UHGV virus genome: UHGV-0247568 | Origin: a virus | Direction: 5' to 3' (one strand) | DNA length: 64,000 nucleotides | Shown: piece after piece, positions 14,175 through 62,245 of the stretch | Layout of the letters: each line of letters begins with the position of its first letter | How positions within the stretch are numbered: the first letter of the stretch is position 1 | The notes under the pieces: generated by a model | What the model was told of the DNA's origin: nothing | The model's input: only the letters and a program-made list of their open reading frames with translations | The model's database searches: none | Translations under genes and position numbers: made by a program

Positions 14175-14259
14175 AAAATATAGGAGGAAAGTGTTTACTT
14201 TCTTCCTTTTTCATGATATAATATAAATATAAAATAATAAAAGAAAAAGAGGTAAGAAA

Positions 14260-16224
14260 ATGGACTTTAAAAGATATAATGAAAGAGAGGCAAAGCAGTA
14301 TACAGCTCATTTGTGTTATCAATTAGGAATTGTTTATAATATTGCTAAATTGATTGCAGAAGATGAACCAACGTTTGTGGCTTTAAATAAAGCTTACAAA
14401 AACAAAGATGATGAATCATATGACAAAGCTTTTAATTTATTAAAGCAAATTAATGGAGTTGGACCAAAACGTGCAGCTTTATATTTAGAAAAATATTTTG
14501 AAAACCCATATCGTTCTATTAATTGGGAAATGTTTAATATTTTACAAAAATATCAAAAAGTGACTGGTTGGTCAGATAATCGATTATATGATTTAGCTCG
14601 CCGTATTGATGACCCTTCAAAAATTTGGGACACATTTTTATATGATAGTTCTATCACATTACCAATTGCTGTTGAAATTTATAAAATGACAACTGAAGAT
14701 GATGTGTATTTACAAAACCAAACAATTGAATATTTTTCAAATTTCGTTAAATTGCGCGAAATTCAAAATGGACAAAATCGTCTTACAGTTCCTAAATTCA
14801 ATATTAACAAAGAATTAAATGAGAAGTATGACGTTTTCTTAGAGGTAAAAGATGTTGTTATGTTGAAAAATACCGCCATGGACTATGTTACAATTCTCAA
14901 ATATTTCAATGAAAATAAAGATAGTGAACTAATCTTTGAGTTAAATGAGGATATTGATGTTTCAGATTTTGGATCAGATCAGTTGGTTGCATTTGAGAAA
15001 TTAAGATGTAAAAAGACAATGATGTTGACTGGTTTTGCTGGAACGGGTAAAACTTACATGTTAGACAAATATATCAAAAATTTAATGGGTGCGAAGGTTT
15101 ACGCTTGTGCACTCGCTGGTAAAGCTGTTAAAAACTTTGTAAATGCAATGAGTCCAGATAGTATGAGAAAAGTTACACAATCCACGGTGGCTGGACTTCG
15201 ATATGTTCCAAAGTATCAAAGTGAATTACACGATTCGACTATTGTAATTGTTGATGAAGTCTCCATGGTGTCTATGTCTGATTTAGCATTTATTATTAGA
15301 AACTTAGACGACGAACAAAAGCTCATTTTAATTGGAGATATTAATCAATTACCAGCTATTGAATTGGATGTTATGAATTGGTTAGTAAATGATGGAGAAA
15401 TTGAATTAGTTACTTTAGACATTCCAAAACGTCAAAGTGCAGATTCCGGAATTTTTAAAGACAGTATGTCTATTATTCGTAAAGAAGTTCCTGATTTTAG
15501 CACGGAAGATAGTCAAGTTAGAATTGGTGCTACAACAGTTCAAAAAATTATTTATGAAAATCGTGATGCAGACATTTTTCTAACAACAACGAATCAAGTG
15601 AAGGATATTATTAATGAAGTCAAATCCAATGAGATTCGTCAAATTCCAAATCATGCAGTATTTAAAAATAAATTATACAAGCAAGAAGTCGAATTCCACG
15701 AAGGTTATCAAATTATGATTGGTAAAAATAATGTTGATACTGGTTTAATGAATGGTGATATTTTTGTTATTAATTACGAAGGACATTTAACTGATCCTTA
15801 TACAGGAGAAATCGCAAGAGATTTAGACGGAAAACCTCTTAAAATAGGAGAAAATCGTGATTATGTTGATGCTGGCTTTGGTGGAAAGAGCAATATTATC
15901 GACACCACGGCACATAACGTTCAAATGGCATTTGCTATTACGACACACAAAAGTCAAGGTTCGACTATGATGAAAGGTGTCACTGTTATGGGTAAAGGTC
16001 CATTAGCTAATCGTAATTTATTATATACAGCTTTAACACGTTTTAAAGAAAAACATGTGTTATACTTACCAGATGAAACTTTATTAGATACAATTTTAAA
16101 TACTGATGTAAAATATGAAAAATTATCTAAAGAAGACCAACAATTTTTAACTGAAATTGTTGAATTAGAAAAAAAGAAAGAGGTAGGTACTAATGATGCA
16201 AATGATGCAGCAGAAATTTTTTAA
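14260..16224 (+). CDS. SF1 DNA helicase (RecD/Dda-like), second copy
   Basis: 'GFAGTGKTY', 'IVIVDEVSMVS', 'ILIGDINQLPAI' (GDxxQLPP motif). Confidence 0.7.
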   Translation: MDFKRYNEREAKQYTAHLCYQLGIVYNIAKLIAEDEPTFVALNKAYKNKDDESYDKAFNLLKQINGVGPKRAALYLEKYFENPYRSINWEMFNILQKYQKVTGWSDNRLYDLARRIDDPSKIWDTFLYDSSITLPIAVEIYKMTTEDDVYLQNQTIEYFSNFVKLREIQNGQNRLTVPKFNINKELNEKYDVFLEVKDVVMLKNTAMDYVTILKYFNENKDSELIFELNEDIDVSDFGSDQLVAFEKLRCKKTMMLTGFAGTGKTYMLDKYIKNLMGAKVYACALAGKAVKNFVNAMSPDSMRKVTQSTVAGLRYVPKYQSELHDSTIVIVDEVSMVSMSDLAFIIRNLDDEQKLILIGDINQLPAIELDVMNWLVNDGEIELVTLDIPKRQSADSGIFKDSMSIIRKEVPDFSTEDSQVRIGATTVQKIIYENRDADIFLTTTNQVKDIINEVKSNEIRQIPNHAVFKNKLYKQEVEFHEGYQIMIGKNNVDTGLMNGDIFVINYEGHLTDPYTGEIARDLDGKPLKIGENRDYVDAGFGGKSNIIDTTAHNVQMAFAITTHKSQGSTMMKGVTVMGKGPLANRNLLYTALTRFKEKHVLYLPDETLLDTILNTDVKYEKLSKEDQQFLTEIVELEKKKEVGTNDANDAAEIF

Positions 16225-16729
16225 AGGTCAGACCATGGAGGTAGTTGGTGCTCTCAATGACGAAAATTATAACATTTATCTTTTACACATGGGAGATTTT
16301 TGTCAAATTGTAGAAGAATTAGAATATGATAAATATTTAGTGCAATTTGAAAATGGTAAAAAATATGTTTTACGTGGAAAATGTTTATCACCAAGTTCAT
16401 TTCCTTTTATTGATAAATCAACAATTATCGTAGCTAATAATATAGGAGTTTTTAACAACGTTAAATATGATGCAGATAAAAAAGCTTTCTGTTTTGAATT
16501 AAAACATTTAGTGGATATTGTTTACTCCACGAAGGATATTCAGAAATTACGTTCAGTCGGATATACTAATTTTTCTACAGTGATCAATGAGAAAATATTT
16601 GAAATTTGTAGACAGCATGGATTAGAAAATGCCACCATGGAGGAAGCAGCAGAACTCTTTAGTTATTTTATGAAAAAAGATTATGATCGTGCTATTGAGA
16701 AATATGGTGAACTCCATGGAATTCGATAA
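16193..16729 (+). CDS. Hypothetical protein
   Basis: 178-aa ORF in early array. Confidence 0.4.
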   Translation: MMQMMQQKFFKGQTMEVVGALNDENYNIYLLHMGDFCQIVEELEYDKYLVQFENGKKYVLRGKCLSPSSFPFIDKSTIIVANNIGVFNNVKYDADKKAFCFELKHLVDIVYSTKDIQKLRSVGYTNFSTVINEKIFEICRQHGLENATMEEAAELFSYFMKKDYDRAIEKYGELHGIR

Positions 16730-17009: not shown

Positions 17010-17166
17010 GTTTTATAGTGCTATTTCTAATATTAGCATATAACGATAAAAAAGATTAAAAAATAGGAATTTTTTCCTATTTTTTTTATTATTATTGAAA
17101 AACTGTTTACAATTGCACCAGTTTATTATATAATATAAATATAAAATAAAGAACGGAGAGAAGTAA

Positions 17167-19939: not shown

Positions 19940-20085
19940 GTTTTCGAAAGGTTGACCTTATAACCTTTCGGAAGCACTATTTTAAAATAAAAAATAAATT
20001 TTATTCAAAAAGTTGGAAAAACTGTTTACAAATTGGCATTTCTAATGTATAATAAATATATAATAAATAAACAAAAGAAAGTAGG
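19940..20085 (+). repeat. ~145-bp regulatory cassette (hairpin cgaaaggtt...aacctttcg + TTTACA/TGTATAAT promoter + conserved leader), copy 1 of 2
   Basis: Near-identical to 58275-58415; both precede small helical-protein genes. Confidence 0.6.
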
Positions 20086-20309: not shown

Positions 20310-20396
20310 AAAAATGGAACCAACGGTTTACAAATTAGTAAATCGTTGGTATAATATAAATATAAACAATAATAAAAAAAGAAAGAAGAGATAAAA

Positions 20397-21227: not shown

Positions 21228-21256
21228 AAAGTATTTTAATAAAATGGTCCATGGAG

Positions 21257-21285
21257 TTTACAAATATCCTCAAATTTGATATAAT
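21257..21285 (+). promoter_or_regulatory. Sigma-A-type promoter TTTACA-N17-TGATATAAT immediately preceded by CCATGGAG
   Basis: 'ccatggagtttacaaatatcctcaaatttgatataatataa'. Confidence 0.55.
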
Positions 21286-22684: not shown

Positions 22685-22712
22685 AAATTAAAAAATATTT
22701 GCTCCATGGAGT

Positions 22713-22740
22713 TTACAAAATTCCATGGAGTTGATATAAT
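22713..22740 (+). promoter_or_regulatory. Promoter TTTACA / TGATATAAT with CCATGGAG copies immediately upstream and inside the spacer
   Basis: 'gctccatggagtttacaaaattccatggagttgatataat'. Confidence 0.55.
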
Positions 22741-24997: not shown

Positions 24998-25035
24998 GTG
25001 AGACGTTTACATAACGTCTCTTTTTTGATATAATA
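24998..25035 (+). promoter_or_regulatory. Terminator-promoter cassette: hairpin gagacgTTTACAtaacgtctc + T6 + TGATATAAT
   Basis: -35 hexamer lies in the terminator loop; T-tract serves as spacer. Confidence 0.6.
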
Positions 25036-25075: not shown

Positions 25076-26107
25076 ATGGCAGGATACGCAGAAAACACAA
25101 TGTTTTTTGGTCAAATTGATGGAAAAACATTGAATAGTTTGGGTAAATTAGATAGAAGTGTAAAAACATTAAAAGACAGATCAAAACAAGTAAACGATAT
25201 TATTGATTCAACTAATTATTTTGTTGAATATTTATCAAAATATTATAAAGTAAGTATTAATGCAAATGAAGCAACAAGTGAAGACGTTGATATTTTTAAA
25301 TACTTAGAAAGAATGGCAACATATTTATTAAATAGTGATGAATCTATTGCTTTAGATAAAGCAGAACAAAAAACATATATTTTCCATAATCAAACAATGC
25401 AAAAATATTTAGATCGTGAAAAAATTAATGTAAATAATAGCAATGGACAAGAAAATATTGTTGATTCTGAAAATGTTGTCCACGCTTTATTAGCTAAAAA
25501 ACAAAACAGTCGAAAATTAAAAGTTCAAACAATTACAGTTGAGGATTTAAAACGCAATGACAAAGTTGGCGAAATTTTAAGAGAATATCAACTAATGCTC
25601 AATGCCATTGACAAAAAGCTTAGTGAACCGCAAGATAAAAAATGGGCAATATACACAAGACAAAAATATTTAGTAAAACAAGATATGGTTGATGCAAAAG
25701 ATATGTTGCTCGGTGTATGGGGCTACAACACTAATTTTAAAGAATCACATATTCCAGATTTAGACATTTTTGATTTTACAGACTTTAAAACAGTTAAATA
25801 TTTACTAACATTTAGTAAGCCAAATGTGTCAGAGAATGAAGATATGTGGTGTGTTTGGCAAGACTTTATTGAAACAGTTAAAAAAGCTAATTTAACTCAA
25901 GAGGAATTGGAAATTTTTAAGTGTTTACAAGATGGGTGGAAATTACAAGAAATTAGTGATGAGTTTGGTATTAAATACCATGGACTTTACCAAACAACAA
26001 TCCCAAGAATCGCTAAAAAGATCATGAAGGTTGGTAACAAATATGATTGTACTGATCCTAAAATAAAAGAGAAAATTAATAACCGAAAAGAAAAAGCCAA
26101 ATCATAA
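25076..26107 (+). CDS. Hypothetical protein with C-terminal sigma-70 region-4/LuxR-type HTH; candidate transcription factor
   Basis: C-terminus 'LTQEELEIFKCLQDGWKLQEISDEFGIKYHGLYQTTIPRIAKKI'. Confidence 0.4.
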   Translation: MAGYAENTMFFGQIDGKTLNSLGKLDRSVKTLKDRSKQVNDIIDSTNYFVEYLSKYYKVSINANEATSEDVDIFKYLERMATYLLNSDESIALDKAEQKTYIFHNQTMQKYLDREKINVNNSNGQENIVDSENVVHALLAKKQNSRKLKVQTITVEDLKRNDKVGEILREYQLMLNAIDKKLSEPQDKKWAIYTRQKYLVKQDMVDAKDMLLGVWGYNTNFKESHIPDLDIFDFTDFKTVKYLLTFSKPNVSENEDMWCVWQDFIETVKKANLTQEELEIFKCLQDGWKLQEISDEFGIKYHGLYQTTIPRIAKKIMKVGNKYDCTDPKIKEKINNRKEKAKS

Positions 26108-26154
26108 GAGTAGTTTACAAAACTACTCTTTTTTGATATAATATAATTATAAAA

Positions 26155-27815: not shown

Positions 27816-27915
27816 GTTTACAAAAATTAAAATAGTTGATATAATATAAATATAAATAATGATTAATGAAAATCATTAAAAATAATATAAAAGAAAAGAA
27901 AGTAGGAATTTAATT

Positions 27916-28916: not shown

Positions 28917-28952
28917 TCTAGAGGAGATGAGTCTCCTCTAGAATTTTTTAAA
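28917..28952 (+). terminator. Rho-independent terminator
   Basis: Perfect hairpin tctagaggagatgagtctcctctaga followed by ATTTTTT. Confidence 0.7.
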
Positions 28953-29449: not shown

Positions 29450-29877
29450 TGGAAAAAAGATTTATTGATAGTTATAAAGCAGGTTTTGAACTATTTCAAA
29501 GCGCAAGTAAAAAAATTGCAATTTTTGAAAAATATTTAAATGAAGAAAAAAATAAAGATTTATTGAAATTATTAAAAAATAATTTCACAGACTATAAAAA
29601 TGATTATTCAAAAATATTGGAATTAGGTTCAGCAGCATATAGTCGTATGGAATTATCTCGAAAATTAAGCGAAGCATATCACCAACAAGCTATCGCGTTA
29701 AAAATGATCATGTATCCCATTGACGAAATGATGGAAATCCATGGTGATAATGATTTAATCCGTTTCCGCGAAACTTTATGTGAGTCCATTGTGGATGAAT
29801 TGCAACTCCATGGAGACGTGTCAGAAACTCGTTTTATGGAATTAGTCGCAGAAGCAATGCGAAAAAATCTGATATAA
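29434..29877 (+). CDS. Hypothetical protein (likely start ATG 29452)
   Basis: ORF track. Confidence 0.4.
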   Translation: MEQILMEKRFIDSYKAGFELFQSASKKIAIFEKYLNEEKNKDLLKLLKNNFTDYKNDYSKILELGSAAYSRMELSRKLSEAYHQQAIALKMIMYPIDEMMEIHGDNDLIRFRETLCESIVDELQLHGDVSETRFMELVAEAMRKNLI

Positions 29878-29948
29878 TAGTTTACAAAATATACTTTAAT
29901 TGATATAATATAAAAGTAAAAAGAAAAAAAGAAAGTAGGAATTTAATT

Positions 29949-31019: not shown

Positions 31020-31129
31020 ATTCATAAAGATAGATTAATTTCTCTCTTTTTGTTTACAAATTAAAAAGAATTTGATATAATATAAATATAATTAAAAGAA
31101 AAAAAATAAAACGAAAAGAGGAAATTATT

Positions 31130-33745: not shown

Positions 33746-33839
33746 AATAAATGGGTATTTTGTAAAAAAAACTGTTTACAAATACCCATTTTTGGTATAT
33801 AATAAATATATAAATAAATAAAAGAAAGTAGGAATTACA

Positions 33840-34441: not shown

Positions 34442-34474
34442 TATAATTATAAAATTTTATAAGGAGTTGAGTGA

Positions 34475-41826: not shown

Positions 41827-41909
41827 AAACTGTTTACAAAATAGAAAAGTTAATGTATAATAAATATATAATAAATAAACAAAACAAAAACAGAAAGTAG
41901 GAAATAACA

Positions 41910-42468: not shown

Positions 42469-42541
42469 GCCTTAAAGGTTTACATTTTCACTATTTATTG
42501 ATATAATATATTTATAAAAATAAATTAAATTGGAGGTATTT

Positions 42542-43057
42542 ATGAATTTAGTTATTGAGGGTCCTAAAGCAAGTGGAAAAAGCACAATTTCTCATTATTT
42601 TATTGAAAAATATTTAACGACATATGATCATATGAGCTCCGATAGTGATAACTCATTAAAAGGACACTTAGATTTATTAAAAGGTAAAAAAGGTGAATCA
42701 TTAAATCATGTTATAGATCGTTTTTCAGTAGGAGAAATGATTTATCCTAATTTATATGGTCGTGAAGGAAAATTAAATTTAGATGAATTTAATGTCACAA
42801 TGAGTTCAGAAAACACATTATACGTTATTCTTTATTCGTCGTCTGATCAATTATTATTTGATCGAATTGAATGGAGAGGAAGAAACACTGATGATGAAGA
42901 TCATGATTTAGTGTCGAAATCAAATTTTGCATTTAAAATGATTGGTGAATCATTGAAATATCGTGAAAATGTATTATTATTTGATGTTGCAAAAGTAGGA
43001 TTAAAAGAAATTATTAAAATAATTGAAGATAAATTGGAGGAGTTAAACAGATGTTAA
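42542..43057 (+). CDS. dNMP kinase (P-loop; thymidylate-kinase-like, T4 gp1 analogue?)
   Basis: 'VIEGPKASGKSTI' Walker A, small size, immediately upstream of and overlapping the dCMP hydroxymethylase gene. Confidence 0.5.
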   Translation: MNLVIEGPKASGKSTISHYFIEKYLTTYDHMSSDSDNSLKGHLDLLKGKKGESLNHVIDRFSVGEMIYPNLYGREGKLNLDEFNVTMSSENTLYVILYSSSDQLLFDRIEWRGRNTDDEDHDLVSKSNFAFKMIGESLKYRENVLLFDVAKVGLKEIIKIIEDKLEELNRC

Positions 43058-43896
43058 AATTTAAAAATGTAAATGATGCATGGATTCATTTGGCAAAAAA
43101 TGTCGTTTATAAAGGTGATGTTGTTGGAAATACAAAAGAATTAACAAATGTATCATTCCAAATTGAAAATCCATTAGATAATATTGTAAAAAGTCGTCAC
43201 AATTTTTCATTAACATATTATTTAGGTGAAACCGTATGGTATGGTGCTGGTAAAGACGATGTTGAATTTATTAGTAAATTTGGTCGTATTTGGAATCATT
43301 TAACGGATAATGGAATTTATAACAATAGTGCTTATGGTTATATCTTAAAAAATAAACATGGTTTTGACCAAATCGAAAAAGCAATTGAATTATTACGTGG
43401 AGATCAATATAGCCGACGAGCAGTGTTAAATATTAATATTCCACGGCGTGATGTTATTGAAACAAAAGATGAAATGTGCACAATTGCATTACAATTTTTA
43501 ATTCGTGATGGAAAATTAGATATGACTGGAATTATGCGTTCAAATGATTTATGGACCGGTACTCCATATGATATTTTTTATTTCACAACATTACAACAAT
43601 ATGTTGCATATATGTTAAATATTGACACTGGAACATATACACATTTTGCAACTTCTTTACACTGCTATTTACGCGATGAAGAAAAATTAATTAAATCTTT
43701 TGAAAATGACGCAAACAATGTTTATGCTGGCGTAGATATTAATGGAATGCGTTTATTATTACAAGCAGAAGATTTATATTATACAACTCGTAAAGAAGAA
43801 AACGCAAAATTAGAATTAGTTAAATTATGCAAAGAACGCAATATTATTAAAGGAAAAGAAGTTGAAAAAACTATTGAAAAACTATCTGCTATTTAG
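43051..43896 (+). CDS. dCMP hydroxymethylase (thymidylate-synthase-fold, T4 gp42-like)
   Basis: 'EMCTIALQFLIRDGKLDMTGIMRSNDLWTGTPYD' parallels T4 gp42 'FMCTNTVQYLIRDKKINAVVNMRSNDVVFGFRND' as I recall it. Catalytic Cys in MCT (not ThyA PCH). Asp at the E. coli ThyA Asn177-equivalent position (R+11), the residue that switches dUMP to dCMP specificity. Confidence 0.6.
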   Translation: MLKFKNVNDAWIHLAKNVVYKGDVVGNTKELTNVSFQIENPLDNIVKSRHNFSLTYYLGETVWYGAGKDDVEFISKFGRIWNHLTDNGIYNNSAYGYILKNKHGFDQIEKAIELLRGDQYSRRAVLNINIPRRDVIETKDEMCTIALQFLIRDGKLDMTGIMRSNDLWTGTPYDIFYFTTLQQYVAYMLNIDTGTYTHFATSLHCYLRDEEKLIKSFENDANNVYAGVDINGMRLLLQAEDLYYTTRKEENAKLELVKLCKERNIIKGKEVEKTIEKLSAI

Positions 43897-44350: not shown

Positions 44351-45409
44351 ATGGAAATTTTATTATTGAATGTCGCAAATAACATTACGGATTTTCGAAC
44401 AGTGTCAAGTGGGGAAACAGTTTATCTAAAACAAATGTTAGAACAGTTAGGCCATGGAGTTACAATTGCTTCAAATAAAAACGGTGAATATGCAGTTGCA
44501 TTTGAGGAAATTGAGGATATTAACAATTTTGACAAAGTGGTTGTTTTACCTGCTTCACTGAATTTTTTCGGTGGTGTAGAAAACCCAACAATTATTAAAA
44601 ATTATAAATTATTAGCAAAATATAATGGAACTATTAATATTTTGCAAACTGACGCACGTTTGCCATTCAAGCAGTTGTGGCCAGCAATTGAGAAGCGTGG
44701 ATGGGGATATAAAAAAGAAGAAGTTTGGATTAATGCCCCAATTAAAGTAATTGCACAATCAAAAAATTTAGATGAAGTTAAAACACAATATGAAAAAGAA
44801 ATTTTCAATGATATTGAGTTTACACATTTTCCAATTGAGCGCTATGCTGGCATTGTGGCGTTAATGAATCCAATCGATGAAGTCGAAGAAAAAGAACACG
44901 ATTTAGTTTATTATGGTTCATTCCGTGGAGGCAATCGTGCTGCTAAAATGGCAGAATTTTTATGTGGAAACATTGTAGAAAAATTAGATGTCCACGTATT
45001 TGGAACAATTCGAGAAAAACAATTAGCTAAAAGTAGTGAAGGTCCATTTCCTTCGTTTGGTAAAAAGATGAAAATGAATGAAATTAGACAAGAGGTTAGC
45101 AAAAGTTTCTCAACTTTAATTATTGGTGAAAAATTTTATAATAATGCAATGTTGACAGTGAGGGTTTGGGAAACATTAAGTAGCGATGCGGTAGTTCTCA
45201 TTGACAACGATTTTGACTCTTACCATAATTTATTTCCTAATTCGCCATGGCGGTATGTTGAAAAAGAAGAAGATCTTATCGAAGTAGTAAAATCTCTTAA
45301 AGATGACGAAAATAAGAGAAAATTAGCGATTCAAGAGCAAAAAGAAGTGTTAGAAAAAATGATTGATTCTTCTCAATGGTTAAGAGATTTTGAAAATATT
45401 TTAGCTTAA
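44351..45409 (+). CDS. DNA beta-glucosyltransferase (T4 BGT-like)
   Basis: 352 aa; T4 BGT is 351 aa. N-terminus 'LLLNVANNITDFRTVSSGETVYL', 'NFFGG', 'DARLPFKQLWP', 'GSFRGGNRAAKMAEFL', 'LTVRVWETLSSDAVVLIDNDFD' parallel T4 BGT 'AIINMGNNVINFKTVPSSETIYL', 'NFFGG', 'DIRLPFSQSWP', 'LRVWETMASDAVMLIDEEFD'; T4 sequence from memory. Confidence 0.6.
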   Translation: MEILLLNVANNITDFRTVSSGETVYLKQMLEQLGHGVTIASNKNGEYAVAFEEIEDINNFDKVVVLPASLNFFGGVENPTIIKNYKLLAKYNGTINILQTDARLPFKQLWPAIEKRGWGYKKEEVWINAPIKVIAQSKNLDEVKTQYEKEIFNDIEFTHFPIERYAGIVALMNPIDEVEEKEHDLVYYGSFRGGNRAAKMAEFLCGNIVEKLDVHVFGTIREKQLAKSSEGPFPSFGKKMKMNEIRQEVSKSFSTLIIGEKFYNNAMLTVRVWETLSSDAVVLIDNDFDSYHNLFPNSPWRYVEKEEDLIEVVKSLKDDENKRKLAIQEQKEVLEKMIDSSQWLRDFENILA

Positions 45410-45480
45410 CGGTTTACGTTAAGCTTTTTTTATGATATAATATAACTATAAATAAATTAGAAAGAAATGGAGAGAAATTT

Positions 45481-48575: not shown

Positions 48576-48676
48576 AAAAATGTAAAAAAACTGTTTACAA
48601 ACAGATCTGCTTAGTGTATAATATATTTATAGTTAATAAACAAACTAAAATATTTTAACAAGAAAGAGGTAGTATT

Positions 48677-48865: not shown

Positions 48866-48879
48866 TATTTTTAGAAAAA

Positions 48880-48915
48880 AGACTGTTTACAAAACAGTCT
48901 TTTTTTGATATAATA
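48880..48915 (+). promoter_or_regulatory. Terminator-promoter cassette: hairpin agactgTTTACAaaacagtct + T7 + TGATATAAT (DNA polymerase promoter)
   Basis: Perfect 8-bp stem enclosing the -35 hexamer. Confidence 0.65.
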
Positions 48916-51900: not shown

Positions 51901-52814
51901 AACAATTAATGGTAAATTTTGTTATGTATGCAGAACCATTTAAACAAAAATTGTCAACTTCAGTGATTCCAAAAATTGCACATTTAATTCCAGATAAATA
52001 TAAAGATGCAAAAGAAGCATATTTCTTTTTGAAAGAAATTAAAAGTAAAAAAGTTCATGATGAATATACGGAATATTTCTTTAATAATTTTAAAGAAGAT
52101 TGTGATAAAAAAGTAACTAAAAAATATCCAGAATCATATACCTATAATGATAATGGGAATTTTATAATTGAAATTAAAGTTTTAGAAAAAGTTGTAAAAG
52201 ATAGAATGGAAAAATTAAAAGAATGGTTACAAACAGAAGACGCACTAAAAGCTGAAGCTTCACTAAGAAGAAGTGTATATTGGCAAAAATATTGTTTAGG
52301 AACAATATCTCACTGGGAAATGGAATCAATCACATTCTATATTTCACAACATGAATTAGAAGAATATCCAATTCATTCATTTTTCGAATTATCTAATTTC
52401 AATGAATTACCGAGAGAGCCAGAAGTTGATGGTTGGAATAATGGACGTGGTGGTAAAAAATGGCCAAAATATAAAAGTCATGTAATTGCGGGAACGGTAA
52501 TTGACACACTTCCACAAAAAGGTATAGTTACTTTAATCACCAAAGACGGTGTTGTTGATGTTCGTGTTGGAAAAGGAAAATATCAATATTATAATAAAAA
52601 GATCATGATTGGACAAGGTAAAGAACGTGTTAATATTGATGATACATGGTGGAAACGCGGAAATATGGTAGTTGTTGTTGGTTACCGTAGAGAAAATGAT
52701 TTTTATGCTAATGCAAAAAATAGTGCATATCAACATTCAGTTATGTTAATTAAAGGACATGATGGAGAAAAAATATTTTTACAACAAGAAAAGAAAAAAG
52801 TTGAAGAAGATTAA
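48948..52814 (+). CDS. DNA polymerase III alpha-type (family C, PHP domain) replicative polymerase
   Basis: 1288 aa. N-terminal PHP 'SIHNHSHFSNFRLRDA...IVLSDHETIAG'. Size and layout of DnaE/PolC catalytic subunit. Confidence 0.65.
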   Translation: MSWHNGWFSIHNHSHFSNFRLRDATNSPQDILKVANNKGLKGIVLSDHETIAGAPVFLDAAKKMKEKGELPEDFVAAIGNEAYLIDRKYEEPMKNQEKVKYFHFLMVAKNQRGFEFLKKQTAKAWENSTYSRGMERVPTFKDELAELMKEYKGDVIASTACIGGELPQLVLKLEKAEQEADAMRIGVIKIEIHYFIEFLVNTFGHDNVFFELQPSKQDEQLIVNKWLPKIAEEYNIKCIVTTDAHYLTLEQQEFHKQYLQASEGEREVESFYATTYIFSYDELLEYFDEELLNELCKNTLIIRDMVNNELKYKHETVIPRSHIPHFEQDESVMQKIDEAKYPNIYKMMRSSVIEDRYYHFKVMKGFVEKEQEFNEENLSRIDLEYGELQAISEQLNQPMTSYFLAMTEFVDIMWEYSLVGVGRGSAVCYYTNYLLDIVQLNPIKYDLPYWRFLSREYVGEFPDIDVDAQGSERANIIEGVKEKFGHENVLNIGTYTTEGPRAASLTACRAFGLDPDTAQNITNAIPSDKGFAWPLQDAFFGNEKEHRKPDKQFIYMVNEYPGLQELMLQSQGLVSGRGQHASGVVVFPDGYTSLNTMMKTSKGLPITQWDAHTTEVAGGIKYDFLSINALDRIRAAIDMLLKDGKIEWQGSLQKTFNKYFHPDVLDMESQEMFDMLFNGEIISAFQFEAKTGRQALEKINARTFDQLVAANSLMRLSSDGEQPIDKYIRYKNDLNEWEKDMDEYNLTEDEKAVMHELLDKKFGVCEVQESIMKIAMHEKVAKYNLREAKGLRKASAKKDPTIQVKQKELFFKKGRENGTSDNLLNYIWNECYVPTFGYSFSEPHVAAYTMILMIEMNIAYRYGVHYWKAACLNVDAGIIGELEAGTKYGKVAKALSNFREDVIPPSVNKSDIGFTPDQNTGKIMYGLKPIVGMNSKLAKQIIEGRPYKNMQHFIDHNVINGDLTNTKMVTLIKSGLFDELYPNRKQLMVNFVMYAEPFKQKLSTSVIPKIAHLIPDKYKDAKEAYFFLKEIKSKKVHDEYTEYFFNNFKEDCDKKVTKKYPESYTYNDNGNFIIEIKVLEKVVKDRMEKLKEWLQTEDALKAEASLRRSVYWQKYCLGTISHWEMESITFYISQHELEEYPIHSFFELSNFNELPREPEVDGWNNGRGGKKWPKYKSHVIAGTVIDTLPQKGIVTLITKDGVVDVRVGKGKYQYYNKKIMIGQGKERVNIDDTWWKRGNMVVVVGYRRENDFYANAKNSAYQHSVMLIKGHDGEKIFLQQEKKKVEED

Positions 52815-52851
52815 GAGAAGTGTTTACACTTCTCTTTCTTTTTGATATAAT
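52814..52851 (+). promoter_or_regulatory. Terminator-promoter cassette (agagaagtgTTTACActtctct + T-tract + TGATATAAT)
   Basis: Same architecture as other cassettes. Confidence 0.6.
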
Positions 52852-53439: not shown

Positions 53440-53715
53440 TCAATTAAAAGTAAAAATTTGATAAAAAATGGGAATGATGGTTTACAAACACTTTTTCTCT
53501 TGATATAATATAAATACCCGCGATAAAGAATATAAAAAGAAAATGAACAACTCGGAAACTTCCATGAAGTTTACGAAGGTGCAACGTTCCGTTGCAACCT
53601 TACTTAGCGAAAATTATGCAAACTTTTTGCATTTTACTGTTTACATATTTCTCAATATAGTATATAATAAATATATAATAAATAAACAAAACAAAAACAG
53701 AAAAGAGGAATTTAA

Positions 53716-53907
53716 ATGATTAAAGTAGAAAATTGGACATATGAACGTGGTATGCAACGTATTAAATGGTGGAAAGAAGAAGGACATGAAGTAAAAACAG
53801 TTGTTCACTCGGATCGAATCCACATTTATCGTAATGAAAAATACGTTGGTACGATGGATAAGAAAAATGGCTCACATAGTTATCAACTAAAACAAACATT
53901 GAACTAG
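53716..53907 (+). CDS. Hypothetical protein
   Basis: 63 aa. Confidence 0.4.
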   Translation: MIKVENWTYERGMQRIKWWKEEGHEVKTVVHSDRIHIYRNEKYVGTMDKKNGSHSYQLKQTLN

Positions 53908-53918: not shown

Positions 53919-54215
53919 ATGTCATATTATGATTATATATATAAACAGAAGGAGATAGACAGAATAGTCGATCAACTACAATTATTAGATTTAACACTTA
54001 GTTGGTCGACTGATAATAAAGATTTAGGTTATGCGACATTAATTATTGAGACAAATGATTTTAGAATGTGCGTGAATGTTGATTATTTTACTTATATTGG
54101 TAAAGATCTTAAAAGCCGTGAAGTAAGAAATAAGATCATTGATTACAGTATTAATAAATTTAAGAAAGCATATGTAAAATATAAATATAATTTAAAAGAA
54201 CTAGGAGGACTATAA
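53919..54215 (+). CDS. Hypothetical protein
   Basis: 98 aa, RBS AGGAGGAA. Confidence 0.4.
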   Translation: MSYYDYIYKQKEIDRIVDQLQLLDLTLSWSTDNKDLGYATLIIETNDFRMCVNVDYFTYIGKDLKSREVRNKIIDYSINKFKKAYVKYKYNLKELGGL

Positions 54216-54216
54216 T

Positions 54217-54504
54217 ATGAAATTTGAAAAAGGTAAGTTATATATTGTTCGTGAAGACGAAAATAATTATATTTTCAAAGTAAAAAATGAACCAAATCCT
54301 GGTCACATTATCGCTGAAAATGCAGTGCGTATTGATAAAGTTTTTGGACAAGAGCAAATTTTAGTGTTTTTACATGATAATGAAATGCTAATGCAGCTTT
54401 TTAACAATAGCGCAGAAGAAGTTACTGATGATTATGAAAAAGAAAAATATTATGATTTAATCAATATGCATACACAAATGTATAATACAAATTTAGGAAG
54501 ATAA
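54217..54504 (+). CDS. Hypothetical protein
   Basis: 95 aa. Confidence 0.4.
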   Translation: MKFEKGKLYIVREDENNYIFKVKNEPNPGHIIAENAVRIDKVFGQEQILVFLHDNEMLMQLFNNSAEEVTDDYEKEKYYDLINMHTQMYNTNLGR

Positions 54505-54799: not shown

Positions 54800-54862
54800 C
54801 TATTTACAGTTATATAAGTTTATGATATAATATAAACATAAATAAAGAAAGAGAGTGATTAT

Positions 54863-57268: not shown

Positions 57269-57578
57269 TTTTAGAGAAGTAATATTAGTCGCTCTTTTAG
57301 CAATGTCTGCTTCTTTAATTATTAAAAATAATGATTTGGAAATGTCTGTTAAAACTTTAAAAGACAAAAATGAAACATATCAAAATGTTATTAAAACGGT
57401 GAATGAAAATAAACGTTTTGTTTCAGATTCAAAATATGGTAACCCAAATTGGCAAATAATTGGGCACGATTATTTTGATAAAAAATCAATGACAATTATA
57501 AAAGATAGTAAGAATAACACTGAATATATTGTTGTTGAAAATGATAAAGGATTGGGTATCACACAACGTATCAAATAG
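57249..57578 (+). CDS. Hypothetical membrane-anchored protein
   Basis: 109 aa, N-terminal TM. Confidence 0.4.
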   Translation: MNFLKNNFREVILVALLAMSASLIIKNNDLEMSVKTLKDKNETYQNVIKTVNENKRFVSDSKYGNPNWQIIGHDYFDKKSMTIIKDSKNNTEYIVVENDKGLGITQRIK

Positions 57579-57658
57579 TATTGTTTTACTATTTGATATA
57601 TCTGTGATATAATATAATTATAGAAGAGTTAGAAATTTATAGAAAGAAGGAAACTATA

Positions 57659-58066: not shown

Positions 58067-58274
58067 TTAGTCACTTTAACAGATGAAACAAATGAATTAT
58101 ATTTGAACAAACAATTAACACCAGAAAAACAAAAAGAAGCTTTAGATAAAGTAGATAAAATGATTGAACAAGTTGCGATATGTCGAATGGTTCAATGTAA
58201 AAAAAATAAAAAAATATAGAAAAGGCTGTTTACAAGCAGCCTTTTTTGGTGTATAATATATTTATAGTTAATTA

Positions 58275-58415
58275 ATACATTTGAAAAGGTTAATCTGATA
58301 ACGTTTCGGAGCAACATTTTTAAAATAAAAATTAGATTTTATTTAAAAAACTGTTTACAGATTACAGTTTCTAATGTATAATAAATATATAATAAATAAA
58401 CAAATTAAAGAAAAG
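58275..58415 (+). repeat. ~145-bp regulatory cassette, copy 2 of 2 (paralog of 19940-20085)
   Basis: Hairpin gaaaaggtt...aacgtttcgg + TTTACA/TGTATAAT + conserved AAATAAACAAA leader. Confidence 0.6.
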
Positions 58416-58426
58416 AGGAAATTAAA

Positions 58427-58576: not shown

Positions 58577-58678
58577 TTTTTAAAAAATTTCATAAAGGCT
58601 GTTTACATTTCAGCCTTTATGTATTATAATAAATATATAATAAATAAACAAAACAAAAACAGAAAGTAGGAATTTAAA

Positions 58679-59026: not shown

Positions 59027-59030
59027 AATG

Positions 59031-59072
59031 TTTACAATCTACTGTGGATATGATATAATATATCCACAGTAG
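59031..59072 (+). promoter_or_regulatory. Promoter of sigma-factor gene with a 12-bp inverted repeat (CTACTGTGGATA / TATCCACAGTAG) bracketing the -10 element: candidate operator
   Basis: 'tttacaatctactgtggatatgatataatatatccacagtag'. Confidence 0.5.
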
Positions 59073-59106: not shown

Positions 59107-59742
59107 ATGAACAAATTATTTTTATTAAACACAGAAAATGGAATTAAAAAAGTTAGCATGTCTTATAACGATCTTTATGATCATTTTTTCAATATGATTC
59201 AAAACGAAACTTGGAAAATCACTAGAGTTTATTCTAACAGTATTGATAGAGATGAAGTAGAGCAACAATTTACAATTGAATTATGGTATGCATTTGAAAA
59301 TTATGATATTGCAACGGGGAACTGTATTTCAACATATATTTTCCATAGATTTAAAAAAGCAAAACGTGATTTATTATATCCTATTCTTCAATCTAAACGC
59401 AATAAATGGAATAATACTAATGTATCTTCATTAAATGCAAAATTGAGTGAAGACGATAAATATGATTCTTCAAATAAAAAATTTGAAAATGATGAAACAT
59501 ATCAGCAAATGGAAAATAGTGGAGCTGAAGTGTTGCTAAAAGATGAAGCATTAGTTGATTTAATTTTATCACATTTTAAATCTGAAGCAGAATTAGATTT
59601 AATTCGAATTTTAATCGATAAGAAAAGTTTCAGTGTTGTGAATTATGCAGAAAAATGGTCAATCTCACGTGTTGCTGCAAATAATCGAGTTAAAAAAATG
59701 AAAGAAAAAATGGCAGAAATTTTAATAAATGAATGGCTATAA
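59107..59742 (+). CDS. Phage-encoded alternative sigma factor (sigma-70 family, regions 2 and 4)
   Basis: 'DEVEQQFTIELWYAFENYD...CISTYIFHRFKKAKRDLL' (region 2) and C-terminal 'SFSVVNYAEKWSISRVAANNRVKKMKEKM' (region 4 HTH). Confidence 0.55.
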   Translation: MNKLFLLNTENGIKKVSMSYNDLYDHFFNMIQNETWKITRVYSNSIDRDEVEQQFTIELWYAFENYDIATGNCISTYIFHRFKKAKRDLLYPILQSKRNKWNNTNVSSLNAKLSEDDKYDSSNKKFENDETYQQMENSGAEVLLKDEALVDLILSHFKSEAELDLIRILIDKKSFSVVNYAEKWSISRVAANNRVKKMKEKMAEILINEWL

Positions 59743-59967: not shown

Positions 59968-60174
59968 ATGGCCTTAAGTTTTTTAATGACAATTGGTATA
60001 TTTTTATTTGCTGGATTAATTGTTTGTTTTGTGGAAGGATACGACAGATTGGAAAGATATATCAAATGGCGTTGGAATTTTGATATTGGGCCGTGGTTTT
60101 TATTTTTAATACTTTTCTTGGTGCTTTGGCTTTTAATGTATGGAATTGTTAAAAGCGGAGGGTTTACACTTTAA
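59968..60174 (+). CDS. Small membrane protein
   Basis: 68 aa, 2 TM. Confidence 0.4.
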   Translation: MALSFLMTIGIFLFAGLIVCFVEGYDRLERYIKWRWNFDIGPWFLFLILFLVLWLLMYGIVKSGGFTL

Positions 60175-60222
60175 TCATTATATGATATAATATAAAAAAG
60201 ATATAAAGAAAGAGGAATATTA

Positions 60223-62163
60223 ATGACAGATAAAATTAAAAAATTAGACGACCGTGCACAAGCTAGGGAAAAACTGAGCATATGGTATGGGTCACGAGAT
60301 AATTTCTACCACGGTGTAAAAGAGCTAATTGCAAACGCGGCAGATGAATTAAGAAATCACGCTAGTGAGCCTGGTAAAATTGAAGTCACTTTATCAAATG
60401 ATAATAAAAGAATTATGGTTAGTGACAACGGTAGAGGCATTCGAATTGGTGGTGAAACAGATGGTGAAAAAAATTATGATTTATTATTCCGCACTTTATT
60501 TGCTGGGACAAAATATGATGTAACTGAAAATGTAACCACGGGCACAAATGGAGTTGGTACAACCGTATTAAATTACACTTCAAAACTATTTGCAGTTATG
60601 TCTCACTATGATAATAAAGTACATAAAGTACGATTTATCAATGGTGGGGAATTAGATGGCGAATACATGGAAAAAGATTTAAATGAAATTAAAGATGCGC
60701 ATGGTTCAACATTTGTGGTTGAATTAGATGAAGCTATTTATACACATACACAGTTCGATCCTAATCATATTGAAGAAATCGTAAAACATTTTGCTGTAGC
60801 TTCACCTGGAATTGAATATAATTTTTTCCATGACACAGGTGAAGAAACAAGTTTAGTATCATTTAAATATGAAGGAATTCGTGATCGTTTTGATGAATTA
60901 GTTGGTTCCACCACAACATCAGGTATTTTCACACTAGGTGAAGTAGAAAATGTGAGCGATGTGTCTCAGATTGACGGCCAGGTGGTAACTGAGAAAAACA
61001 AATATAATATTATATTAACGACTTCTCCAGATACACACCAGGAATCATATTTAAATATGACTTGGTTAGAAGAAGGCGGAGCGATTAATGATGGTGTACT
61101 AGATGGTGTTCGATTATATATGAATAAATATTGTCGAGCTAAAAAATTATTTCCTAAAAAAGTAACTGCATTTAATAAAGAAGATATTGAAAATTCACTA
61201 TCATTTATCGCTGTAGTTGAATCAAATATTGTTGAATTTAGTAACCAAACTAAATTAAGTACAAATAAGAAAAAATATAAAGATGAAGTAAAAAATTATG
61301 TTGAAAATTTATTAACTGCAATGGAAGCTCAACAACCAAAAGAGTTCAATAAATTTGTTGACCATTTATTAACAGTGCAAAAAGCAAATGGAGCAAATGA
61401 TCGAGCTCGTCAAAAATTGAAAAAGCAATTAACTGAAAAGGTAACAGGTATCGGAAACAAGATTGAAAAATTAATTGATTGTGAAATTCATGGATTAGAT
61501 GCTGAACTATTTTTAACAGAAGGTGATTCAGCAAATGGATCGATTGTGGACAGCCGTGATGATCATTTTCAAGCAGCATTTCCATTACGTGGTAAAGTGT
61601 TAAACGTTTTACGTGCATCACCTGAAGATATTTTCAAAAATAAAGAAATTGTAAATATGATCAAAATTATTGGAACAGGTATTCAATTTGGTAAAAAAGA
61701 TGATTTTGATATTGATAATTTACGATTTGGAAAAATTATTATTACAACAGATGCTGATGCAGATGGTGGACATATCATGTCACTATTAGTTGCTTTTATT
61801 TATCGGTTTATGAAACCATTATTAGAAAAAGGACATGTGTATGTTGCACAAACGCCTTTGTATGAATTGAAATTTAGTGATGATTCTGTAGTTTACTTTT
61901 TAACTGAAGATGAAAAAAATAAAAATATTGGTAAATATGAAGGTCAAAAATATACGATTAATCGCTTAAAAGGATTAGGTGAAGTCGATGCGGAAACAAT
62001 GGAAGCAACGACTATGAATCCAGAAACACGTAATCTTATTCAATTAACAACAGAAAAAGCAGAAGATTTTCTAATGATAGATAAATGGATGAACGATGAT
62101 GTTGAACCAAGAAAAGAAATGATTAACGATCAGCTTGCAAATTATGTGCATGACATTGATTAG
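60223..62163 (+). CDS. Type II DNA topoisomerase ATPase/TOPRIM subunit (GyrB/ParE/T4 gp39-like)
   Basis: GHKL 'ELIANAADE', 'SDNGRGI', TOPRIM 'ELFLTEGDSANGS', 'IITTDADADGGHI'. Confidence 0.8.
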   Translation: MTDKIKKLDDRAQAREKLSIWYGSRDNFYHGVKELIANAADELRNHASEPGKIEVTLSNDNKRIMVSDNGRGIRIGGETDGEKNYDLLFRTLFAGTKYDVTENVTTGTNGVGTTVLNYTSKLFAVMSHYDNKVHKVRFINGGELDGEYMEKDLNEIKDAHGSTFVVELDEAIYTHTQFDPNHIEEIVKHFAVASPGIEYNFFHDTGEETSLVSFKYEGIRDRFDELVGSTTTSGIFTLGEVENVSDVSQIDGQVVTEKNKYNIILTTSPDTHQESYLNMTWLEEGGAINDGVLDGVRLYMNKYCRAKKLFPKKVTAFNKEDIENSLSFIAVVESNIVEFSNQTKLSTNKKKYKDEVKNYVENLLTAMEAQQPKEFNKFVDHLLTVQKANGANDRARQKLKKQLTEKVTGIGNKIEKLIDCEIHGLDAELFLTEGDSANGSIVDSRDDHFQAAFPLRGKVLNVLRASPEDIFKNKEIVNMIKIIGTGIQFGKKDDFDIDNLRFGKIIITTDADADGGHIMSLLVAFIYRFMKPLLEKGHVYVAQTPLYELKFSDDSVVYFLTEDEKNKNIGKYEGQKYTINRLKGLGEVDAETMEATTMNPETRNLIQLTTEKAEDFLMIDKWMNDDVEPRKEMINDQLANYVHDID

Positions 62164-62245
62164 AATTTTGGGAAAAGTAGTTTACTTTTCCCCATTTTCT
62201 TGATATAATATAAACATAGATTAATGGAAATGAGGAATAGGAATT

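Follow-up and report, generated by a model that had tools for sequence, protein, structure and literature searches.

In the early region of one Enterococcus phage, almost every gap between genes carries what appears to be the same short element, a promoter often enclosed in a hairpin. Is this a family of mobile regulatory elements, as a sequence-only reading had proposed, or a fixed way of separating one gene group from the next? The window, a 64,000-nucleotide stretch of the viral genome UHGV-0247568, is 95-96% identical to phages VPE25 and VFW, and the source phage is a lytic, VPE25-like Enterococcus siphovirus of the genus Vipetofemvirus. The region holding the promoters corresponds to VPE25 genes classed as early by RNA-seq, in which replication and nucleotide-metabolism genes accumulate by 10 min (PMC7064774). 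The VPE25 RNA-seq table is row-normalised, and its noise is too high for steps at individual cassettes to show.

A near-invariant promoter array

In its strict form, T[TG]TAC[N]-N16-18-TATAAT, the promoter motif has 34 matches on the + strand and one on the - strand. The + strand match at 43962 was dropped as a probable chance occurrence because it is intragenic. Thus, 33 promoters of the form G-TTTACA, 17 nt, TATAAT lie on the + strand between 10119 and 62181, and one on the - strand. The array of about 30 copies described previously is therefore real but under-counted. All the cited sequences are present at their coordinates, and 31 of the 33 sites fall within the span then given; the array begins before its proposed start at 14183, since promoters are also found at 10119 and 12304. 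Allowing up to two mismatches, TGATATAATATAAA has 32 matches versus 7.6 expected, a number reached in none of 100 shuffles, and TGNTATAAT occurs 27 times on the + strand versus 5 on the - strand.

Class 1 (24 of 33 sites) reads TGATATAATATAAatATAAA and class 2 (9 of 33) reads TATAAT-N5-TATAAT-AAATAAACAAA. The spacer is 17 nt at all sites except one, TGn is present in 23 of the 24 class-1 sites, and the -35 is nowhere TTGACA, with G at -36 in 30 of 33. The consensus, G-TTTACA, 14 nt, TGA-TATAAT, is a near-perfect match for the housekeeping sigma factor with an extended -10; after it come a start region rich in A/T and a strong ribosome-binding site. Each short gene group has one such promoter in front of it, 30-60 nt upstream of a ribosome-binding site and start codon. 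Of about 32 genuine intergenic gaps on the + strand that span 45 nt or more, about 28 contain a promoter, in line with the claim that nearly every gap is occupied. Seventeen sites have no significant hairpin around the -35; orthologs in phage 9183, which belongs to a different genus, are given where they differ:

10119-10147, + strand: class-1-like promoter TTTACT-17-TATAAT with TGA; no hairpin; outside the earlier span
12304-12332, + strand: class-1 promoter, first after the non-coding region where the relatives' records begin
17106-17134, + strand: class-1 promoter TTATATAAT, no TG, no hairpin; AAAACTG, a class-2-like feature, on its upstream side
20025-20075, + strand: class-2 promoter with tandem -10, before a 71-aa lineage-specific gene
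21247-21285, + strand: class-1 promoter, no hairpin; CTCCATGGAG-like palindrome (GTCCATGGAG) adjoins the -35
27817-27845, + strand: class-1 promoter, no hairpin
29881-29909, + strand: class-1 promoter, no hairpin; additional TGATATAAT directly 5' of the -35, at 29870
31053-31103, + strand: class-1 promoter; VPE25/nattely/vipetofem homology stops in the leader at 31103
34414-34442, + strand: class-1 promoter overlapping the upstream gene's 3' end, no hairpin (phage 9183: hairpin of -21.3 kcal/mol)
41833-41909, + strand: class-2 promoter with shared ~50-nt leader, no hairpin
48594-48622, + strand: class-2b promoter TGTATAATATATTTATAGTTAAT; weak 5-6-bp hairpin only
53481-53509, + strand: class-1 promoter, no significant hairpin
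53640-53716, + strand: class-2 promoter with shared leader; nattely similarity stops in the leader at 53695
54803-54831, + strand: class-1 promoter; weak 6-bp AT-rich hairpin only (phage 9183: -10.3 kcal/mol)
58354-58426, + strand: class-2 promoter with tandem -10, before a 49-aa gene
59031-59072, + strand: class-1 promoter; 12-14-bp inverted repeat (CTACTGTGGATA...TATCCACAGTAG) brackets the -10
60163-60191, + strand: class-1 promoter before the topoisomerase/gyrase B gene, overlapping the upstream gene's end; no hairpin (phage 9183: -18.5 kcal/mol)

Hairpins enclosing the -35

At the other 16 promoters the -35 lies within a significant hairpin (-10.7 to -22.6 kcal/mol; Z-scores against shuffles of -3.4 to -9.1), rather than the eight counted before. 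One of the strongest is at 22713, previously listed as hairpin-free. When each native arm was folded with its spacer, 16-17 of the 33 sites lay at or below a level that 1.6% of controls (1056 arm-swapped chimeras) reach. In the following list, which includes the array's sole clear stand-alone intrinsic terminator as a contrast case, "coupled" denotes a predicted terminator-promoter unit:

14182-14222, + strand: coupled; hairpin 14182-14207 (11 pairs, loop GTTT, -13.7 kcal/mol), then TTTTTCA, then TGATATAAT
20323-20355, + strand: class-1 promoter TGGTATAAT; hairpin 20323-20346, -35 in the 5' arm, no T-tract
22701-22740, + strand: class-1 promoter; -35 between two CTCCATGGAG palindromes that can pair as a 14-pair hairpin (-18.9 kcal/mol), no T-tract
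25000-25034, + strand: coupled; GAGACGTT-TACAT-AACGTCTC, then TTTTTT, then GATATAAT
26106-26142, + strand: coupled; 11-pair hairpin, loop ACA, T6 tract
28917-28942, + strand: stand-alone intrinsic terminator, no promoter; 11 pairs and T-tract
33749-33803, + strand: class-2 coupled; 15-pair hairpin, -35 in the 3' arm, T5 tract
40055-40099, + strand: coupled, 16-nt spacer; GGAGAATG...CATTCTCC, then ATTTTTA
41601-41657, + strand: class-2 coupled, -35 TGTACA; 18-20-pair hairpin (-22.6 kcal/mol), T6 tract
42459-42507, + strand: class-1 promoter; 14-pair hairpin (-16.4 kcal/mol) around the -35, weak T-tract
45403-45441, + strand: coupled, -35 TTTACG; AGCTTAACG-GTTTA-CGTTAAGCT, then T7
48875-48914, + strand: coupled, before the DNA polymerase gene; AGACTGTTT-ACA-AAACAGTCT, then T7 (orthologous gap in phage 9183: unrelated stem)
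52813-52851, + strand: coupled, directly 3' of the polymerase stop codon; 10-pair core hairpin, loop TTTA, then TTCTTTTT
57568-57613, + strand: class-1 promoter TTTACT; 13-pair AT-rich hairpin (-14.2 kcal/mol), no T-tract; hairpin lost in nattely
58217-58257, + strand: class-2b coupled; GGCTG...CAGCC, then T6; orphan, the gene downstream being decayed here and intact in nattely (gp079)
58591-58678, + strand: class-2 promoter with shared leader; 11-pair hairpin (-14.6 kcal/mol), TTTACATTT in the loop
62170-62209, + strand: coupled, TTTACT; GGGAAAAGTA-GTT-TACTTTTCCC, then CATTTTCTT

The -35 had been placed in the hairpin loop. Usually, the hexamer does not lie wholly there but is shared between a loop of 3-5 nt and the stem. 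Similarly, the 3' arm runs into a T-tract as described in 11 of the 16 hairpins (a run of at least four T), where the tract doubles as promoter spacer. A good T-tract is missing in the other five (20327, 22712, 42479, 57585, and 58602), which may terminate inefficiently. In several AT-rich stems, G-C pairs number only 2-5. Spacer T content per 8 nt is 5.2 for hairpin promoters versus 3.2 (p = 0.0002), and hairpin start positions range from -11 to +16 nt relative to the stop codon of the preceding gene. Moreover, nearly all sites from a scan for terminator-like structures in + strand intergenic sequence overlap a -35, and this fused design accounts for about 12 of the roughly 13 predicted terminators in the early region. 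About 100 unrelated phage contigs carry the same promoter motif without the hairpin, which is therefore not a by-product of that motif.

Across four close relatives, 14 of 15 cassettes keep their hairpin. Stems changed at 13 of 428 sites versus 24 of 339 unpaired sites, and 8 of the 13 stem changes preserve pairing (wobble and compensatory). One stem pair of the 33749 hairpin passes from U-A through U.G to C-G across relatives, and the nattely ortholog of the 41601 hairpin carries the compensatory change GTGCA/TGTAC to GTAAA/TTTAC. What is conserved is the pairing and not the stem sequence, which differs in every copy. Phage 9183 carries about 26 promoters of this kind; in about 12 of them the -35 is enclosed by a stem of unrelated sequence, and the phage's GenBank record annotates terminators at those stems.

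We consider it likely that these are early promoters that sigma-A, the host's housekeeping sigma factor, recognises, and that they are fused to intrinsic terminators. The earlier proposal that each unit ends the upstream transcript and re-initiates within ~40 bp is supported by the near-perfect extended -10 promoters, the hairpins at stop codons, T-tracts that track the hairpins, co-varying stems, recurrence of the architecture in another genus, and the match to VPE25 early genes (PMC7064774). From these we infer initiation, termination, and their coupling at the cassettes. At about half of the sites, the preceding unit's intrinsic terminator would be laid over the promoter. The DNA containing the -35 would encode the RNA hairpin, and the U-tract would be the T-rich promoter spacer immediately 5' of the -10, so that the upstream transcript is predicted to end ~8-17 nt before the next start. 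Likely benefits would be saved space and insulation of the expression level of each gene group.

Class 2 and the question of mobility

The second promoter subfamily noted previously is real, with TGTATAATAAATATATAATAAAT at up to three mismatches giving 6 matches versus 0.02 expected. Class-2 copies share a near-identical stretch of 28-50 nt 3' of the -10, and the leaders that had been called nearly identical in three members (41833, 53640, and 58602) are 86-94% identical over 50 nt. The class stands before eight small, mutually unrelated proteins; none has a homolog in phage 9183, whereas in class 1 the figure is 17 of 23 (Fisher p = 0.0004).

Such traits would suit PeSL-type recombination modules, in which repeated promoter and leader homology drives gene insertion, deletion, and swapping, and genes move together with their regulation. 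The PeSLs of T4-type phages (Arbiol et al. 2010, PMC2839356; Comeau et al. 2014, PMC4122927) are likewise composite: a strong early promoter for the housekeeping sigma factor, with an A/T-rich region upstream, is combined with a terminator stem-loop and a ribosome-binding site in a unit repeated many times across early regions. Stem-loops overlapping the -35 are one of five PeSL subclasses (PMC2839356), and the likeness drawn in the sequence-only reading is fair as an analogy; class 2 resembles PeSLs also in preceding small homolog-less genes. Two gene replacements among close relatives have their left junction within a cassette leader. Past 31103, VPE25, nattely, and vipetofem carry a 36%-identity homolog instead, and past 53695 nattely carries different genes. 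In addition, nattely and vipetofem have a small ORF inserted at the ribosome-binding-site region past promoter 60163. However, of the 18 promoters that could be tested, 16 have a positional ortholog in phage 9183, and each copy has hairpin arms of its own; the terminator-promoter unit therefore did not spread as one sequence. No clean cassette-to-cassette indel leaving one chimeric cassette was found among five close relatives, and most gene gains and losses proceed without cassette use. Endonuclease-like insertions are among these (36570-37149, and at 48950 in EfKM29), the 54207 deletion runs between two ribosome-binding sites, and 58258-58353 reflects internal gene decay. In IMG/VR the class-2 28-mer is confined to nattely and vipetofem contigs, that is, to this phage lineage, and the presence of class-2-type promoters in phage 9183 indicates that the type is old and under selection rather than merely a recent copy. 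PeSLs also differ in lacking sequence homology to these cassettes, which belong to a siphovirus of a Gram-positive host, have stems that are not polyG/polyC, and mostly stand before conserved replication genes at conserved positions. The module reading is thus possible but doubtful. Recombination could be an added role, above all in class 2, to which PeSL-like traits, near-identical leaders before unrelated small lineage-specific genes, look to be limited. For the main class the label "mobile regulatory elements" is not supported, and overall the mobility claim is mostly unsupported.

Operators, phage factors, and known designs

The inverted repeats around the -35 might instead be operators at which dimeric DNA-binding proteins turn the promoters on or off, a reading that we regard as unlikely for the set. 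An over-represented palindrome, CTCCATGGAG, stands on both sides of the 22712 promoter, and 21257 adjoins one copy of it; neither promoter has a T-tract, and for this reason the palindromes at 22701-22740 are more likely an operator than a terminator. The inverted repeat around the 59031 -10 also looks like an operator, and the gene downstream has a weak helix-turn-helix match. That terminator palindromes can double as transcription-factor sites is stated in a section heading of a 2026 preprint (10.64898/2026.08.19.745784). However, the remaining 14 stems are unrelated in sequence, so no common protein could read them; conservation acts on pairing, and the hairpins come with T-tracts, right after stop codons. 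Reading by, or dependence on, a phage-encoded factor in place of plain sigma-A, either a sigma factor or a protein that modifies host polymerase, would account for why GTTTACA is invariant and the boxes downstream are conserved. Indeed, the invariant TTTACA, the G at -36, and the conservation of bases 3' of the -10 go beyond the needs of recognition by sigma-A alone. T4 early promoters have the consensus -35 GTTTAC at -36 to -31, which is linked in T4 to Alt-modified polymerase (PMC1524935, citing the T4 genome review). They share the off-consensus -35 (G at -36, T replacing G at -33), TATAAT, and strong early expression via host polymerase. The two phages also have in common a gene for a T4-type beta-glucosyltransferase, and the DNA of the present phage is probably glucosylated; hosts and phage lineages are unrelated, and the likeness may be convergence or coincidence. 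Two genes, one the 343-aa gene downstream of the 25000 cassette, are annotated as sigma factors in relatives' records, but Pfam gave no confirmation of these labels. Furthermore, the promoters fit sigma-A at 11 of 12 bases plus TGn with 17-nt spacing, they serve the first genes needed after injection, among others, and the same extended motif is found in many unrelated phage contigs. Dependence on a phage factor is therefore very improbable.

The preferred reading, sigma-A promoters fused to terminators, has a bacterial counterpart in the promoter-coupled terminators of Fletcher et al. (bioRxiv 10.64898/2026.08.19.745784, Aug 2026), with which the predicted phage units share the same geometry. 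In both, stem-loop DNA coincides with the -35, the T-tract lies immediately 5' of the -10, the RNA end falls shortly before the next start (~10 nt, at most 35, in bacteria), and the units sit between tandem genes and shorten intergenic regions. By analogy, the T-tract should aid the promoter, and promoter-bound polymerase should aid termination. In contrast to the bacterial cases, the design here is that of a phage, a setting that preprint leaves unmentioned; it is the default punctuation of the early region and is joined to one near-invariant strong promoter sequence. The array thus appears to be a dense case of a known design and not a new kind of mobile element.

Predicted promoters of the rightward gene block

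The window has a G+C content of 29%. Over 10 kb it shares 95-96% identity with Enterococcus phages VFW, VPE25, vipetofem, nattely and vB_EfKM29 (EfKM29); with phages 9183, Planchet and TJE4, identity in the DNA polymerase gene is about 77%. The genes up to ~10,000 are leftward and those from ~10,100 onward rightward, and the annotations of the relatives assign helicases, ligase, nucleotide-metabolism enzymes, DnaB, primase, RecJ, DNA polymerase and topoisomerase to the rightward block. RNA-seq of VPE25 is reported to give 78 early genes, those for nucleotide biosynthesis and replication among them, whose transcripts accumulate within 10 min; this is gene-level evidence that the rightward-block genes are early (PMC7064774). 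Table S2A of the VPE25 study, examined for expression steps at individual promoters and for class-specific timing, is row-normalised with replicates that disagree, and was too noisy. A scan of the window with Rfam placed no known RNA family in the intergenic gaps; the sole match, with Rfam and ARAGORN alike, was a tRNA-Trp gene (anticodon CCA; 7493-7566, - strand) in the leftward block. A 1.1-kb non-coding stretch at 11190-12300 has many TATATA-type repeats and a G+C-richer part with CACACCCTCAGGAC-type repeats. The VPE25, nattely and vipetofem records start or stop inside it (~11282-11332), and here the window probably runs across the physical ends of the genome, or across a packaging region or an origin.

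The pattern T[TG]TAC[N], 16-18 nt, TATAAT has 34 matches on the + strand and 1 on the - strand. One + strand match, at 43962, is intragenic, looks like chance and was set aside. The sequence TGATATAATATAAA, at up to two mismatches, was found 32 times versus 7.6 expected, and TGNTATAAT has 27 occurrences on the + strand and 5 on the - strand. Shuffled sequence gave far fewer matches, and the promoters are co-oriented with and upstream of genes, occupying ~28 of the ~32 intergenic gaps that are genuine and 45 nt or longer. A sequence-only reading had counted about 30 copies between 14183 and 62209. Its cited sites, re-read, do hold the sequences described, and its count was low, as we find 33 genuine + strand sites. 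Its span does contain sites, but the real range is 10119-62181, so that two lie upstream of its start. The sites fall into two classes, the second of which it had already recognised as a subfamily:

24 sites, + strand: class 1 promoters, G-TTTACA, 14 nt, TGATATAATATAAatATAAA
9 sites, + strand: class 2 promoters, aaaaCTG-TTTACA, 17 nt, TATAAT-AAATA-TATAAT-AAATAAACAAA
28917-28942, + strand: plain terminator without a promoter, in one of the gaps that lack one

All 33 sites score 10-11 of 12 against the housekeeping-sigma consensus TTGACA plus TATAAT, with a spacer of 17 nt in 32 and 16 nt in one; none uses the canonical TTGACA. A G precedes the -35 hexamer at 30 of the 33. The extended -10 (TGn) is in register at 23 of 24 class 1 sites, and the TG is displaced by one base in class 2, two of whose nine members (48594 and 58229) are variants. 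We considered whether the TATAAA of class 1 is a general second -10-like box; in phage 9183, of a different genus (Denvervirus), the position reads GTAAA and is unconserved, and the element is better read as a start region, R-TAAA. An extra TGATATAAT directly 5' of the -35 of promoter 29881 (29870-29878) may be the remnant of a duplicated or shifted promoter.

The T4 early-promoter consensus has an identical GTTTAC at -36 to -31 (PMC1524935). Separately, the window encodes, at 44351-45409 and 43051-43896, a clear homolog of T4 beta-glucosyltransferase (Pfam E = 8e-62) and a thymidylate-synthase-family enzyme, accompanied by several nucleotide-metabolism genes. The DNA of this phage probably carries glucose on a hydroxymethylated pyrimidine. 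T4 DNA is likewise glucosylated, and a link between glucosylation and the unusual GTTTAC -35, both common to T4 and this phage, is speculation.

Hairpins enclosing the -35 element

For each promoter, the 25 upstream nt, the -35 and the spacer were folded and compared with 1056 chimeras that joined the upstream arm of one promoter to the spacer of another. This arm-swap control replaced a common structure alignment because loop position and stem length vary among the copies. Mean folding energy was -8.8 kcal/mol for the native sequences versus -3.7 kcal/mol for the chimeras, and 16-17 of the 33 natives, versus at most 1.6% of the chimeras, reached -10.7 kcal/mol or lower. The 16 hairpins range from -10.7 to -22.6 kcal/mol, and 15 folded one by one had z-scores of -3.4 to -9.1 against shuffles. 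A terminator scan recovers most of them, and nearly all the intergenic + strand terminators detected overlap a -35. The hairpin with the -35, as claimed from the sequence, is thus borne out by the chimera test, but the list of examples had been too short by half. It had also counted site 22713 as lacking a hairpin; a 14-pair hairpin is present there, without a T-tract, formed from two CTCCATGGAG palindromes.

The placement of TTTACA in the loop holds only in part. In most hairpins the loop is only 3-5 nt within GTTTACA, so the hexamer is divided between loop and stem, and at 33775 and 41629 the -35 lies in the 3' arm. Measured from the upstream stop codon, hairpins begin at -11 to +16 nt, with the exception of the orphan promoter 58229, and they end 3-12 nt from the -10. 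The T-tract that was said to serve as spacer is there, as a run of at least four T directly 3' of the stem, at 11 of the 16 hairpin promoters, and a good tract is missing in the other five. In the 8 nt before TGn the mean T count is 5.2 with a hairpin versus 3.2 without (Mann-Whitney p = 0.0002). Since T-richness is tied to the presence of the hairpin, the tract is a terminator feature re-used as spacer and not a general promoter feature.

Could the promoter motif by itself give rise to the hairpin? GTTTACA-N14-TGATATAATATAA is found in at least 120 IMG/VR stretches (loci L006-L125), drawn from many unrelated viral contigs, versus a rough chance estimate of fewer than 10, and seems to be a widespread promoter type of A/T-rich phages. 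Among the IMG/VR matches listed, ~100 unrelated phage contigs showed no excess of hairpins. With no such excess outside the Enterococcus phage contigs, that explanation is rejected: the hairpin is not a by-product of the promoter sequence.

Other inverted repeats were noted in the same region. The 10-bp palindrome CTCCATGGAG, at up to one mismatch, has 22 sites versus 0.48 expected (11961-46370), mostly intragenic, for example at 12030, 21697, 22702, 29806, 38290, 38548 and 46361. The -35 of promoter 22712 lies between two copies, and that of promoter 21257 directly adjoins one. Counts of the palindrome's core, CCATGG, are 42 in the window versus ~4 estimated from base composition, 41-50 in each close relative, and just one in 50 kb of phage 9183. 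At 59039-59072 an inverted repeat of 12-14 bp (CTACTGTGGATA...TATCCACAGTAG), identical in four relatives, surrounds the -10 of promoter 59031. The 211-aa gene downstream (59107-59742) is labelled sigma-70 family in the relatives, and Pfam gives only a weak Mga helix-turn-helix match; the repeat looks like a candidate autoregulatory operator.

Conservation of the units and the question of mobility

Every stem differs from all the others. Nevertheless, the hairpin is kept in 14 of 15 comparable cassettes (promoter, with or without hairpin, plus leader) across VPE25, nattely, EfKM29 and vipetofem. These four relatives show 13 substitutions over 428 stem sites versus 24 over 339 unpaired sites, and 8 of the 13 preserve pairing. 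At 33775, for instance, a U-A pair in the window is U.G in VPE25 and nattely and C-G in EfKM29 and vipetofem; at 41629, GTGCA/TGTAC has become GTAAA/TTTAC in nattely. By this comparison it is pairing, rather than stem sequence, that is under selection. Phage 9183 has ~26 TTTACA-17-TATAAT promoters in 50 kb (24 matches versus 2.1 expected), ~12 of them with unrelated stems around the -35, and its GenBank record carries "terminator" features at the hairpin promoters. Of 18 window promoters whose downstream gene has a 9183 homolog, 16 have a promoter at the orthologous position; the hairpin is present there in both phages at 4, in the window only at 4 and in 9183 only at 4-5. Promoter positions are therefore old and stable, with terminators gained and lost on top of them.

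The units had been likened to the promoter-early stem-loops (PeSLs) of T4-type phages and called mobile. A PeSL joins a sigma-70 early promoter and an A/T-rich upstream region to a ribosome-binding site and a stem-loop, which takes one of five positions, among them over the -35 (PMC2839356). The array likewise combines early promoter, A/T-rich upstream region, stem-loop and ribosome-binding site, repeated in the genome, and the analogy is a fair one. Mobility of the main class is not supported. Besides the orthology of 16/18 promoters with 9183, none of ~10 gene-content differences from the four close relatives is a cassette-to-cassette indel leaving a chimeric cassette. In two or three, a single junction falls inside a cassette leader, among them gene replacements whose left junctions lie at 31103 (replacing homolog 36% identical) and 53695; the rest lie elsewhere. 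A 579-bp insert with a 201-aa ORF (36570-37149), between the DnaB-like helicase and primase genes, is missing from all four close relatives; the ORF has no Pfam match, and the insert is probably a free-standing insertion of homing-endonuclease type. In EfKM29 a different insertion, with the annotation GIY-YIG endonuclease, sits where the polymerase gene starts (window 48950); it looks like an endonuclease insertion. A 546-nt gene of all four relatives is missing from the window at ~54195-54231, and the junction (54207) falls between two similar ribosome-binding-site regions (AAAGAA-TAGGAG); short homology at such sites appears to mediate gene loss as well. At 58258-58353 a 63-aa gene, complete in nattely as gp079, is reduced to a remnant; in the window and VPE25 it has two internal deletions. 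Promoter 58229 is thus an orphan that drives no gene, with the next promoter 125 nt downstream.

Class 2, which may be mobile, does look like the PeSL-like part of the array. As the sequence-only reading had noticed, three of its leaders are nearly identical (86-94% over 50 nt after the -10). Eight class 2 promoters have an intact gene, and in all eight it encodes a small protein (42-115 aa) without a 9183 homolog, versus 6 of 23 in class 1, where 17 of 23 are conserved (Fisher p = 0.0004). Duplication of class 2 along with its genes was rejected, as the eight downstream proteins are mutually unrelated, and horizontal spread likewise, as a 28-mer of the cassette is confined in IMG/VR to nattely and vipetofem contigs. 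Moreover, tandem TATAAT-N5-TATAAT occurs twice in phage 9183, before small genes, so the class 2 type is old and presumably functional, not just recently copied.

A bolder proposal, which we consider unlikely, is that the nine class 2 elements form a module of their own, for regulation and recombination, in this phage subfamily. It draws on their hallmarks (AAAACTG-TTTACA upstream; a tandem -10 of TATAAT, 5 nt, TATAAT, then AATAAACAA), on genes that are always unrelated, small and lineage-specific, and on the conservation of the tandem -10 in another genus. The second -10-like box would lie at about -1 to +5 of the transcript, where it could, as at lambda PR', retain sigma and make polymerase pause close to the promoter; alternatively, it could bind a phage regulator. 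Either could give these accessory genes their own timing, and the long identical leader could provide homology for swapping in new small genes. If true, the module would be a Gram-positive counterpart of PeSLs.

Probable fused terminator-promoter units

The best reading of the array, and a likely one, is that host sigma-A early promoters are fused to the intrinsic terminator of the preceding unit; initiation, termination and their coupling are what we infer from these features. That such units terminate and re-initiate had been proposed at the outset, and as a reading it is supported. The upstream RNA end is predicted 8-17 nt before the next predicted start. In promoter-coupled terminators a start on the same strand follows the terminator end within 35 bp, most often after ~10 bp; the stem covers the -35 and the T-tract adjoins the -10. 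In these elements, mapped in A. baumannii, E. coli and B. subtilis, stem DNA works as the -35, the promoter is strengthened by a T-tract immediately before the -10, and polymerase bound to the promoter raises termination (Fletcher et al. 2026, bioRxiv 10.64898/2026.08.19.745784). The units of the window have the same geometry, in predicted positions only, with 8-17 nt from RNA end to start and 3-12 nt from stem end to -10; phages go unmentioned in that paper. The sigma-factor labels on the relatives' genes (window 25076-26107 and 59107-59742) are unconfirmed by Pfam, and therefore no switch from host to phage sigma is argued from them. Sequence evidence supports the promoter and terminator reading. 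The array is a genuine, statistically solid and evolutionarily conserved set of fused terminator-promoter units in a Gram-positive siphovirus, a further case of kinds already known from bacterial promoter-coupled terminators and T4-type PeSLs.

This phage group offers a natural and very regular array, a dozen fused units with one promoter sequence and differing stems, and its relatives supply natural stem variants as well as gains and losses of hairpins. It is a convenient test system for ideas so far studied mainly in bacterial chromosomes: that promoter-bound polymerase aids termination by the upstream polymerase, that the T-tract boosts the promoter, and that released polymerase re-initiates nearby. 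Among phages of Enterococcus faecalis, VPE25 is widely used as a model, and a promoter and terminator map would be useful for annotation, engineering and transcriptome interpretation of these candidate therapeutic phages.
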